Shown here in pieces: positions 60,444 to 61,859 of a DNA stretch of 64,000 nt. The stretch's first letter is position 1, and the number at the start of each line of letters is the position of its first letter. The DNA comes from Bacillales bacterium UBA7278. Lineage in GTDB: Bacteria; Bacillota_I; Bacilli_A; RFN20; CAG-826. Location: contig DKRQ01000019.1 of the NCBI GenBank assembly GCA_002472275.1, forward strand, positions 140,279-204,278, read 5' to 3'. Under the pieces are notes generated by a model. That model saw nothing but the letters and a program-made list of their open reading frames with translations. It did no database searches and was not told where the DNA came from. Position numbers and translations under genes: made by a program.

Positions 60444-60479
60444 AAAACTTGGTCATGCAAAATTGCATAAGTAAGTTTT
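60444..60479 (+). repeat. 36-bp direct repeat, copy 1
   Basis: aaaacttggtcatgcaaaattgcataagtaagtttt, identical to 61824-61859. Contains nested inverted repeats (aaaactt/aagtttt and atgcaa/ttgcat). Confidence 0.95.
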
Positions 60480-60497
60480 CCGTGATAAAGTTTTGTC

Positions 60498-61349
60498 ATG
60501 GAATTCGATTATTCAACCAGAAAAGATTTGAAGTTTCTTATAGAAGTAGGGGGGCGGACCGTAGAGGAGATTGCCTCCGAAACGGGTTTTTCGGTACGGA
60601 CGATCGAAAGCGTTGCCTTAGGGGAAACTAAAGCCTCGGATCAGGTAAATGAAAAAATCTATTCGCTCCTTTTCGACCAAGGGTACTCCTTGAATCGAGC
60701 GAAAGAGGAGACTTTGGCTGAGAAATATGGGAAAGCCCTCTTGTTCCATGGGTCCAAGAAAGGACTAAAGGAGATTGTCGCGGACGGCTCCCGAGCCAAT
60801 TGCGATTTTGGGACAGGCTTTTATTTGGGCGAAAGATTTGATTCCGCAGCAAGTTTTGTCTTCGCTAATGAAGGAAGCAGCGTCTATGCGTTTTCCTTTG
60901 ATCCGAAAGGGCTCAAAGGCGTTGAACTTGAATGCGATTTGAAATGGATGCTCCTCGTTTGCGCTTTTAGGGGAACGCTAGGCCAATTTGCGAATCACCC
61001 TAGGATTAAGCAAGCCATGGAAACCATTGCGGGGGCCGATTATATCAAAGCCCCGATTGCTGACAACAGGATGTTTTTCGTCATGGATGCCTATGCGAAA
61101 GGGGAGATGACAGACGTGGAGGCTATCCATTGCTTGTCTGCCTCGAGTCTAGGGAAGCAGACCGTCATCAAAACCAAGAAGGCGATTAAGCGCCTTGTTT
61201 TCCTCGAGCGTTTCTATCTATGCCAAGGTGAGAGGCAACACTTCGCCATGGAAGCCGAGGAAAGATCCAAACTGATAGAAACGAAACTCAAATACGCCAA
61301 GCGGGAATTCCGTGGAGAGGGTCAATTTATTGACGAATTGCTGTCATGA
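60498..61349 (+). CDS. N-terminal HTH fused to a DUF3990-like domain
   Basis: HTH-like RTVEEIASETGFSVRTIESVALGE, followed by LLFHGSKKG and GTGFYLGE motifs. Paralog of 25231-25908. Confidence 0.5.
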   Translation: MEFDYSTRKDLKFLIEVGGRTVEEIASETGFSVRTIESVALGETKASDQVNEKIYSLLFDQGYSLNRAKEETLAEKYGKALLFHGSKKGLKEIVADGSRANCDFGTGFYLGERFDSAASFVFANEGSSVYAFSFDPKGLKGVELECDLKWMLLVCAFRGTLGQFANHPRIKQAMETIAGADYIKAPIADNRMFFVMDAYAKGEMTDVEAIHCLSASSLGKQTVIKTKKAIKRLVFLERFYLCQGERQHFAMEAEERSKLIETKLKYAKREFRGEGQFIDELLS

Positions 61350-61825
61350 GAGAGTTTGATATAGAAGGATTAAGGCAAGCCGAGTTTCAAGCGGAGATTT
61401 TCGAGGCTTCCGCCACCAAAACCGATTGTTCTTCGCTTATTTTCCTTCGTCGCTATGGCAAATCCAAATTGGCTTTGTCTTTCGACCGGGGCACGGCCGA
61501 CTATTCCTTGACGGTCGAAGATGCGTTGCGGGAAATCGAAGAAGAATTTGGCCATTCCTCCTATGGCAAAGACAAGTATCCCGCTTCGGTCCTCTATTGG
61601 CTTGGATATCAATACCGTTACATCGCCTATACAAGGCAATGCGAAACCCGTTTCCTTTTCCGCCTCTTTCCTCCGAAGAAGATGGCGTCGACCTATTTGG
61701 CGTTCCATACCCAAAGCCAGGAATGGGTGGTGGCATCATGGCTGGAGATTGTAGAAAAGGACGAAAAAATCTTCTCTCCGTTTGAAAGAGCCAAAGCTTA
61801 TTACAGGAAAGTTTACGGGCTTTAA
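61346..61825 (+). CDS. Partner protein of the DUF3990-like gene (no HTH)
   Basis: ATGA overlap with the upstream gene. YWLGYQYRYIAYTRQCETRFLFRLFPPKKMASTYLAFHTQSQEWV is homologous to YFWAGYVFAFFLWKSGHRMESSLRRLGIDTLIALYHPYHEMAMEAV of the 24612-25250 product. Confidence 0.45.
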   Translation: MREFDIEGLRQAEFQAEIFEASATKTDCSSLIFLRRYGKSKLALSFDRGTADYSLTVEDALREIEEEFGHSSYGKDKYPASVLYWLGYQYRYIAYTRQCETRFLFRLFPPKKMASTYLAFHTQSQEWVVASWLEIVEKDEKIFSPFERAKAYYRKVYGL

Positions 61826-61859
61826 AACTTGGTCATGCAAAATTGCATAAGTAAGTTTT
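61824..61859 (+). repeat. 36-bp direct repeat, copy 2
   Basis: Identical to 60444-60479. Begins 2 nt inside the stop codon of the preceding gene and ends 63 nt upstream of nadE. Confidence 0.95.

Follow-up and report, generated by a model that had tools for sequence, protein, structure and literature searches.

What is a 36-bp sequence doing when it occurs in two identical copies around a pair of small genes, and to whom does it belong, the genes or their host? The question is raised by a two-gene cassette in a 64,000-nucleotide (nt) stretch of contig DKRQ01000019.1 of Bacillales bacterium UBA7278 (the window, part of the JGI contig Ga0120380_1000003). Here a gene for a helix-turn-helix (HTH)-DUF3990 protein (open reading frame 1; ORF1) and a partner gene (ORF2) lie between a gene for an RDD-family protein upstream and the genes nadE (NAD synthase) and pncB (NAPRTase) downstream. 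A sequence-only reading of this DNA had offered two answers: that the repeat is an att-like site or target duplication left by insertion of a mobile toxin-antitoxin (TA)-like module, or that it is a duplicated promoter/operator which now drives both the cassette and nadE-pncB. Our analysis retains something of each. We hold, with moderate confidence, that the repeat is a conserved, cassette-borne palindrome, here called P, which acts upstream as operator and promoter element, downstream as a 3' hairpin, and at both ends as the terminus of a mobile TA-like module, and that recombination between copies of P explains why the cassette is present in some genomes and absent from others. The module possibly serves in defense.

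The 36-mer AAAACTTGGTCATGCAAAATTGCATAAGTAAGTTTT, the local version of P, stands at 60444-60479 (P1, the upstream copy) and at 61824-61859 (P2, the downstream copy), 36 of 36 nt identical and 1,380 nt apart. These are the only copies in the 64-kb window: no third one was found there even when up to three mismatches were allowed, and 100 shuffles gave no match at all. As the sequence-only reading had described, the copies enclose ORF1 (60498-61349, forward strand, 283 amino acids [aa]) and ORF2 (61346-61825, forward strand, 159 aa), P2 beginning within the TAA stop codon of ORF2 (61823-61825), and the flanking genes are those it had named. The nested inverted repeats that it pointed out are likewise real and form an imperfect palindrome of 17+2+17 nt, at whose edges the identity between P1 and P2 stops exactly. 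Both copies lie on the forward strand, with the core AACTT-N22-AAGTT at 60446-60477 in P1 and 61826-61857 in P2, and they are in direct orientation (32 of 32 matches direct versus 24 of 32 inverted). The structure is no assembly artifact, because an independent ENA contig (L168; 98% identical to the window) shows the same arrangement, including both flanks and both junctions. A Logan assembly (L001/L003) is interrupted at the repeat, which is the outcome to be expected at k = 31; with P at 36 nt exceeding this k, Logan unitigs are uninformative on empty versus occupied sites, heteroplasmy and circular forms. The cassette is also compositionally foreign to its surroundings, with a GC content of 0.43 to 0.49 and positive skew against 0.52 to 0.62 and negative skew in the flanks.

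That the repeat belongs to the cassette follows from its relatives, since homologous cassettes are flanked by palindromes of this one family even where genome and context are unrelated. Scanning species-representative genomes with ORF1 gave 80 family loci (L008 to L087); most belong to Lachnospiraceae, Erysipelotrichaceae, Acholeplasmatales/Anaeroplasma and other Bacilli and Clostridia of the rumen and gut, and a few bins are labeled Bacteroidales or Treponemataceae. Across them P is 31 to 32 bp long, with the core AACTT-N21/22-AAGTT (commonest form AACTTGTTTGTnCAAnTTGnACAAACAAGTT), and is built of two inverted arms of 14 nt each, between which lies an asymmetric center, variable in sequence and 3 to 4 nt long, that gives the site polarity. 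With a presence threshold exceeding the 99th percentile of control windows, an upstream P was recognized in 78 of 79 assessable loci and a downstream P in 45 of 77. In 31 of these 45, the core of the downstream copy starts 1 to 3 nt from where the ORF2 stop codon begins, as it does in the window. The two copies of a locus resemble each other more (0.88) than they do copies at other loci (0.81), and 6 of the 43 pairs show complete identity. The pairs are direct in 31 cases, inverted in 10 (all of low similarity) and tied in three, and they are direct wherever the copies are similar. Outside the cassettes, P was absent from 573 kb of pncB loci and occurred twice in 446 kb, both times in relation to a cassette, one copy lying in an interrupted cassette (L016) and the other closing a three-gene variant (L076). 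P is linked to the cassette and not to host sequence. Because that linkage is strict, the search for further copies did not turn up the many dispersed copies that, according to the sequence-only reading, would have marked a generic repetitive extragenic palindromic (REP)-type element. A related core that the same reading had placed upstream of another gene, TGCAAAATTGC at 5847-5857, does exist but is not significant, as chance alone would give 1.2 such matches and three or more turn up in 13% of shuffles. It sits in a different palindrome, GTAAAACC...GGTTTTAC (5837-5877, upstream of the next gene), without the AACTT/AAGTT ends, and is unrelated to P.

Several family members depart from the two-gene layout. 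In the interrupted cassette of Butyrivibrio hungatei NK4A153 (L016 4001-8630), an insertion of approximately 3.1 kb splits ORF2, with the downstream P placed after the 3' part of the gene; in L076 (479-2970), an extra ORF of 218 aa, with no Pfam match, lies between ORF2 and the closing P. L047 carries two DUF3990 cassettes in tandem (83-1611 and 1689-3120) with a single P between them, and the ORF2-like protein of the first, at 272 aa, has an extra C-terminal domain without a Pfam match. Two IMG/VR viral contigs, L170 (3605-3635) and L171 (6266-6296), each hold one canonical P and no cassette. The copy in L170, a 138-kb contig, is seemingly inside a coding region, and a match of 25 specified bases is not expected by chance.

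The position of the upstream copy suggests a regulatory role. A TATAAT-like box follows the upstream P within 30 nt in 76 of 78 loci and starts 8 ± 1 nt after P in 62; given that distance, the -35 box (typically TTGAAC), set off by a 17-nt spacer, falls within the right-hand half of the palindrome. This conserved promoter is of sigma-70 type, and in 76 of 78 loci its -35 box and spacer are overlapped by P. By positional homology to this TTGAAC-17-TATAAT arrangement, the putative cassette promoter of the window lies at 60463-60491 on the forward strand, with TTGCAT at 60463-60468 in the right half of P1, a 17-nt spacer, TG at 60483-60484 and the -10 box TAAAGT at 60486-60491; P1 would be its operator. 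The family-conserved TTGCAT-17-TAAAGT replaces the hexamers TTGGTC-17-TAAGTT given by the sequence-only reading. The ATG of ORF1 is only 6 nt past the -10 box, a gap shared by the Bacilli-type loci L010, L021, L027, L034, L035 and L082, which suggests that the cassette mRNA is probably leaderless. At the other end, P2 and its flanking GGGCTT and GAGCCC form an extended hairpin (61817-61869, forward strand) followed by TTTT, with a predicted RNA fold of -23.3 kcal/mol (z = -4.75) that was equaled in stability by none of 200 shuffles. It is likely the transcription terminator of the cassette.

Sequence co-variation is consistent with binding of P by the HTH of ORF1, since the half-site variants of P track the HTH recognition helix. 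Helices of the form (I/V)SRTTL go with the half-site GTTTGT, and those of the ISK.T. group with GTTCGT or GTTAGT; Bacilli-type helices pair with ..ATGCA or ..GTGCA variants. The helix FSVRTI of the window is matched by GGTCATGCA / ACTTATGCA, ISLRTL in L027 by ACTTATGCA, and LSRRTL in L035 by ACATGTGCA. One metagenome-assembled genome (RUG11795) contains two cassettes, L036 and L058, with distinct versions of P (the canonical form and AACTTATAGGTGCAATATTGCACCTATAAGTT) and distinct recognition helices, a difference which suggests specificity classes that avoid cross-talk, as in insulated paralogues.

The cassette has the makeup of a type II-like TA module, that is, two small, adjacent, coupled genes, one of them with a known toxin fold. 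ORF1 and ORF2 are translationally coupled through an ATGA overlap (61346-61349). ORF1, which matches Pfam DUF3990 with E = 4.7e-26, comprises an N-terminal Xre/Cro-type HTH (approximately residues 1 to 60), similar in fold to C.Kpn2I (fold likeness, 9.1), ClgR (9.0) and HigA2 (8.6), and a DUF3990 domain with an ADP-ribosyltransferase (ART) fold (approximately residues 80 to 240), similar to the RES toxin of Xre-RES (8.5), PARP15 (8.5), ParT (8.2), diphtheria toxin (8.2) and MbcT (8.2). The C-terminal fold agrees with the placement of DUF3990 in the Pfam ART clan (PMC7955679) and with an Rhs effector in which DUF3990 is the toxin domain at the C terminus and an immunity gene follows downstream (PMC4524185). 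Among 28 ORF1 homologues, the invariant residues include H84-G85, R99, C102-D103, Y109, Y130 and an APIADN motif, and ORF1 matches the PADLOC phage defense candidate models PDC-M13A/B, M42A and M10A. We presume that ORF1 is both a toxin and a DNA-binding autoregulator. ORF2, without a Pfam match, is all-alpha, conserved and of novel fold; it is presumed to be the antitoxin or immunity protein, and one of its homologues carries the NCBI name 'antitoxin'. No recombinase fold was among the fold likenesses of either protein.

Homologues of ORF1 with the same length and architecture number more than 800 (clustered at 90% identity), with more than 500 matches among species-representative genomes, mostly of rumen and gut Firmicutes, and an ORF2 homologue lies directly downstream of ORF1 in 81 of 82 loci. 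In plasmids (PLSDB) and phages (INPHARED), tblastn with ORF1 found no close homologue; distant DUF3990 matches were limited to two Lactobacillus plasmids, with none in phages. The searchable literature held no description of the palindrome or of the cassette, including under DUF3990/DUF3791.

The extent of the cassette as a unit was read from an all-against-all comparison of the loci. Cassette pairs are 85 to 97% identical in nucleotide sequence across genomes whose flanks cannot be aligned (for example, 96.6% for L060/L074, 94.5% for L048/L074, 95.5% for L051/L061 and 97.6% for L056/L061), and the similarity is confined to the span from approximately -75 to -100 to approximately +1340 to +1360 relative to the start of ORF1, which is P to P. 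This P-to-P unit is the segment common to genomes with differing flanks. Among close relatives, synteny breaks exactly at the cassette ends in L039/L041, L074/L077 and L021/L032. In L038, L048, L060, L075 and L084, the cassette directly follows rpsI (ribosomal protein S9), which ends approximately 135 nt before the upstream P. The cassettes at this site are more alike (79 to 94% nucleotide identity) than the rpsI genes beside them (72 to 80%), and the cassette has therefore apparently been exchanged between species at the same position, which implies that the position after rpsI has been targeted repeatedly or has been a place of allelic exchange. Outside the P-to-P unit, a search for short target duplications or target motifs turned up nothing except A/T extensions of the palindrome. 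The 137 neighboring genes (161 Pfam families) showed no enrichment of integrases or transposases and no integrase family among the 25 most frequent; an adjacent IS110 transposase occurs in L008 only.

An empty version of the site in the window was reached through homologues of the RDD protein; a scan of genome contigs with that protein gave no match. A 99%-identical RDD protein (P0001) led to Logan contigs L004 and L005 from other samples, which share 97.1% identity with the window across 8.6 kb and in which the RDD gene is followed by 143 nt containing exactly one 36-mer and then by nadE, with no cassette. The empty site with a single repeat upstream of nadE, which the sequence-only reading had proposed to look for, is present in these conspecific strains. 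A more distant relative (P0002; 66% RDD identity) showed no synteny with nadE, and the sequence of P0003/L172 stops short of the junction. In L168, which carries the cassette at the same site, ORF1 and ORF2 have diverged from those of the window by 3.9% and 2.3% and the flanks by 3.4 to 3.8%. The cassette has diverged as the flanks have and was therefore vertically inherited in the window and L168 strains. P itself is well conserved in this set: the two copies in L168 have 0 and 1 change relative to the window, P1 is unchanged in a cassette variant with 94% ORF1 protein identity (L173), and the window and L004 differ at none of the 36 nt of P and at 8 of the 26 nt just downstream. With somewhat better than moderate confidence, we propose that the cassette was lost from the L004 lineage by P x P recombination rather than gained at a solo P, because the solo P would otherwise need an explanation of its own and the NAD loci of relatives are without P. 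The alternative history is gain of the cassette, at a solo P, by the ancestor of the window and L168 strains.

From these observations, a working model can be assembled. The HTH of ORF1, alone or with ORF2, would bind P1 and thereby autoregulate a probably leaderless operon in the fashion of a type II TA system. P2, extended by GGGCTT/GAGCCC and TTTT, would end the transcript and may double as a second operator. Since P1 and P2 are direct repeats, recombination between them would delete the cassette precisely and leave a solo P of the kind seen in L004/L005, and a solo P or a resident cassette could in turn offer an incoming cassette a place to recombine in or be exchanged. Homologous (RecA-type) recombination or a site-specific recombinase acting in trans is a possible agent.

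Several observations weigh against this model. The downstream P has been lost or is degenerate in 32 of 77 loci, and is therefore dispensable once the cassette is in place. The sequence-only reading had held that relatives carrying the cassette without flanking repeats would refute it, and in respect of the downstream copy these 32 loci, which have none that can be recognized, go part of the way; the upstream copy is there in 78 of 79. Most loci have only 0 to 3 T after P, which is therefore no canonical terminator family-wide, and the promoter hexamers of the window are weak (7 of 12), below the threshold of a consensus scan. Phylogeny confounds the co-variation of HTH and P, which may go back to only a few independent events. 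Recombination between copies of P cannot account for first arrival at a site free of P, and 31 to 36 bp is close to the lower limit for RecA-type recombination. As to loss rather than gain, the flanks differ per 576 nt by 20 between the window and L168, by 27 between the window and L004, and by 34 between L168 and L004, so that the empty strain L004 is the probable outgroup to the other two; several flank sites are phylogenetically incompatible.

A further difficulty comes from seven cassettes that have outer, diverged direct repeats of host sequence (29 to 129 nt, 78 to 96% identical) beyond the P-to-P unit: L010 (3836-3939/5366-5469, in Anaeroplasma bactoclasticum ATCC 27112, where the repeat overlaps the 3' end of a tRNA-Trp gene by 9 nt), L013 (3817-3896/5419-5499), L014 (3806-3898/5468-5558), L017 (3691-3726/5459-5492), L030 (184-312/2396-2524), L074 (3709-3810/5401-5501) and L083 (2567-2595/4059-4087). 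They could stem from Campbell-type integration of a circle that contained host DNA, be what is left of larger islands, or have arisen as long duplications during insertion. The idea that the outer repeat of L017 is a tRNA 3' end was dropped, as ARAGORN and Rfam show no tRNA or tmRNA there.

An alternative hypothesis is that P is an att-like site for a dedicated recombinase encoded elsewhere (Xer-type, integron-type or serine), or conceivably for the cassette's own proteins, and that a circular P-ORF1-ORF2 form integrates into a solo P, an event that would yield the identical 36-mers. Much of the evidence for P as a terminus of a mobile module would fit: the modules are discrete, with homology ending at the edges of P in varied contexts, synteny of close relatives breaks at the cassette ends, and the empty site retains a solo P. 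The pair is in direct orientation, the 14-nt arms around an asymmetric center of 3 to 4 nt give polarity, and P is better conserved than the adjacent intergenic DNA (0 of 36 versus 8 of 26 changes between the window and L004). However, recombinase genes are absent from the cassettes and their surroundings and show no enrichment among the 137 neighbors, neither protein has a recombinase fold, and cassettes also occur at loci without any sign of an earlier P. The overlap region of tyrosine recombinases is 6 to 8 bp, for which the center of P is too short. The dif modules of Acinetobacter plasmids, which often carry TA genes too (PMC6449649, PMC13141974), would be the obvious precedent, but the 14+3/4+14 layout of P is unlike the 11+6+11 of dif, and dif-module sites are inversely oriented where copies of P are direct (PMC6449649). 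The promoter position of P and its co-variation with the HTH are, moreover, already accounted for by a role as operator. On balance, we regard the att-like hypothesis as unlikely. A bolder proposal, which we would call equally doubtful, is that P-bracketed HTH-ART cassettes are hitherto unrecognized recombinase-less mobile modules of Firmicutes, the counterpart of the Acinetobacter dif modules, in which P is operator, promoter element, terminator and recombination site at once; these could be moved by a site-specific recombinase of the host or by an unprecedented activity of their own ART-fold protein, such as DNA ADP-ribosylation or nicking at P that sets off recombination.

The remaining explanations locate the meaning of the repeat in its neighborhood. 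An ART fold implies NAD+ as substrate, and a duplicated operator might let the HTH-DUF3990 protein co-regulate its own operon and nadE-pncB, coupling NAD+ consumption to NAD synthesis and salvage. P2 does lie 28 nt upstream of the -35 box of nadE, and in L019, L046, L068 and L086 the repeat extends over a -10-like box before the next gene. The closest cassette (L008, from Bacilli bacterium RGIG3712 of goat rumen), with 53% and 50% aa identity to that of the window, likewise lies upstream of NAD genes, with an IS110-family transposase gene on one side and, on the other, a pncA-like gene and then pncB (L008 326-1531, 1722-3128 and 3144-4852), and its PncB is 85% identical to that of the window; this context could reflect common descent, re-use of P as a landing site, or a real functional link. 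In the window, however, the repeat covers no such box and no -10 box follows P2, and nadE has a promoter-like site of its own that is kept in the empty-site strain. In a PncB scan of metagenomes, P or the cassette occurred in 0 of 80 related pncB loci (69 to 83% PncB identity), so that we reject P as a conserved NAD-operon operator of the kind bound by NiaR, NrtR or NadR, which is conserved upstream of NAD genes. The genes that follow 75 cassettes come from many families unrelated to NAD (IMS polymerase, TfoX, rhomboid, HD-GYP, AlkZ-related and others), and only 2 of approximately 82 cassettes adjoin NAD genes, both in related lineages. Of the duplicated promoter/operator proposed by the sequence-only reading, the overlap of P1 with the cassette promoter stands, and the driving of nadE-pncB by P2 is not supported; regulation of the NAD genes through P now appears improbable. 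Weaker still is the notion that the 36-mer is a target-site duplication of host sequence, or else a generic palindrome, of REP or terminator type, present twice by coincidence. A single copy in the empty site and a hairpin able to act as terminator speak for it, but the same palindrome family recurs with the same promoter and stop-codon placement at approximately 80 unrelated loci, P is missing from the NAD loci of relatives and from elsewhere in the 1 Mb examined, and there is no short target duplication or motif outside the P-to-P unit. Transposase target-site duplications are copies of host sequence that differ from one insertion site to the next, usually of 2 to 14 bp, and 36 bp is far longer than any that are known; nor does the cassette encode a transposase. 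REP elements and bacterial interspersed mosaic elements (BIMEs) are dispersed in many copies without linkage to a gene; here the window has two copies, and all others in 573 and 446 kb are cassette-related. We consider this last explanation very improbable and effectively refuted. Insertion as pictured by the sequence-only reading survives in its mobile TA-like module, empty site and foreign composition, and not in its duplicated host target, as the repeat is cassette-borne in unrelated genomes.

Under the favored interpretation of P as a cassette-borne operator and terminus, the cassette shares features with several known systems. Like the NAD+-targeting ART-fold toxin systems Xre-RES, ParST and MbcTA, it is a coupled two-gene operon with an Xre-type HTH, and like Xre-RES it has a palindrome, here a putative operator, over its promoter (PDB entry 9r35 is titled as Xre-RES bound to promoter DNA). 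In contrast to these systems, its HTH is fused to the N terminus of the ART-fold protein and is not on the antitoxin, its domain is DUF3990 and not RES, its partner is an all-alpha protein of 159 aa, and a second copy of the putative operator closes its 3' end. It resembles DarTG in that the DarTG toxin belongs to the same Pfam ART clan (PMC7955679) and in being a two-gene module with a candidate role in phage defense, but its partner has no macrodomain and its ORF1 has an HTH. In its mobility, it is closest in outline to the Acinetobacter plasmid dif modules (pdif XerC/XerD), which are likewise small, recombinase-less and bounded by palindromes, in varied contexts that imply horizontal movement (PMC6449649, PMC13141974). 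Sites of the pdif type are 28 bp long, with 11-bp XerC and XerD arms and a 6-bp center, and flank their modules in inverse orientation (PMC6449649), whereas P has 31 to 32 bp (14+3/4+14), forms direct repeats and would double as promoter/operator, and the cassette is chromosomal and resides in gut and rumen Firmicutes and Mollicutes-like bacteria. By length, arm layout and orientation of P, it is not an Xer/dif-type module (pdif or integrative mobile element exploiting Xer [IMEX]). We rate the cassette as a presumed ART-type TA module joined to a site-bounded mobility that resembles that of dif modules.

Integron cassettes are also one- or two-gene units with an imperfect palindrome at the 3' end and presence/absence polymorphism. 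The cassette described here differs in having its own promoter, in having no IntI or attI nearby and in forming no arrays save the tandem pair L047, and P, unlike the structure-conserved attC, is a near-perfect palindrome conserved in sequence, with a full copy at both ends. An integron cassette, with its attC at the 3' end only, no promoter and an intI/attI platform, does not describe it. Like miniature inverted-repeat transposable elements (MITEs), REPs and BIMEs, P comprises A/T-flanked hairpin palindromes, and because P is a palindrome P1 and P2 are also terminal inverted repeats; unlike those elements, it comes without a transposase or a target-site duplication, is not dispersed in solo copies, and carries a promoter element.

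These results give DUF3990, an uncharacterized branch of the ART superfamily, a genetic context in the form of a fused HTH, a dedicated partner of novel fold and a candidate operator of 31 to 32 bp, and its function, target and regulation are therefore directly testable. The cassette is common, being found in hundreds of gut and rumen bacteria, and it behaves as a discrete, horizontally exchanged unit that encodes no recombinase and is bounded by its own putatively regulatory palindromes. Should these palindromes mediate gain, loss and exchange, they would provide a simple route by which addiction or defense modules spread and are replaced at fixed positions, and a single DNA element would join regulatory and mobility roles. 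For annotation, the locus is a caution against taking exact repeats around a small cassette for att sites or target duplications as a matter of course.

Some further features of the locus and of cassette neighborhoods are recorded here. Window positions 60300-62000 gave no Rfam match at E ≤ 1. The RDD gene ends in an intrinsic terminator at 60407-60434 (forward strand), a G+C-rich hairpin with a T-run that lies outside the repeat (RNA fold, -15.1 kcal/mol; z = -2.4) and is kept in the L004 empty site; in L009, P is preceded by a similar 'hairpin-TTTTTCGTTGCC' layout. NAD- or ADP-ribose-related neighbors of cassettes (the next ORF in L045, L067 and L073, and two other ORFs) include a weak Sir2 match (E = 0.001) and Macro in 2 of 137, and DNA-repair neighbors include a Y-family polymerase gene in L019 and an AlkZ-related gene in L063; among the cassette neighbors, the counts of both groups are too low to call an enrichment. 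Upstream of the cassette, window positions 56305-60400 hold AAA-ATPase genes, a gene for a protein with a zinc ribbon and a trypsin-like protease domain, and the RDD membrane protein gene. Several of the encoded proteins have long Pro/Ala/Glu-rich low-complexity tails, and the block is conserved in L004/L005. The promoter-like site of nadE (61888-61916, forward strand) reads TTCCCA-17-GATAAT, is conserved in L004 and lies 28 nt downstream of P2, and the nadE ATG, at 61923, is 6 nt past the -10 box, so that the nadE mRNA is probably leaderless as well. Since nadE (start region, 61909-61925) and ORF1 (start region, 60486-60500) both have their ATG 6 nt after a -10-like hexamer and no Shine-Dalgarno sequence, they suggest that this organism often uses leaderless mRNAs.

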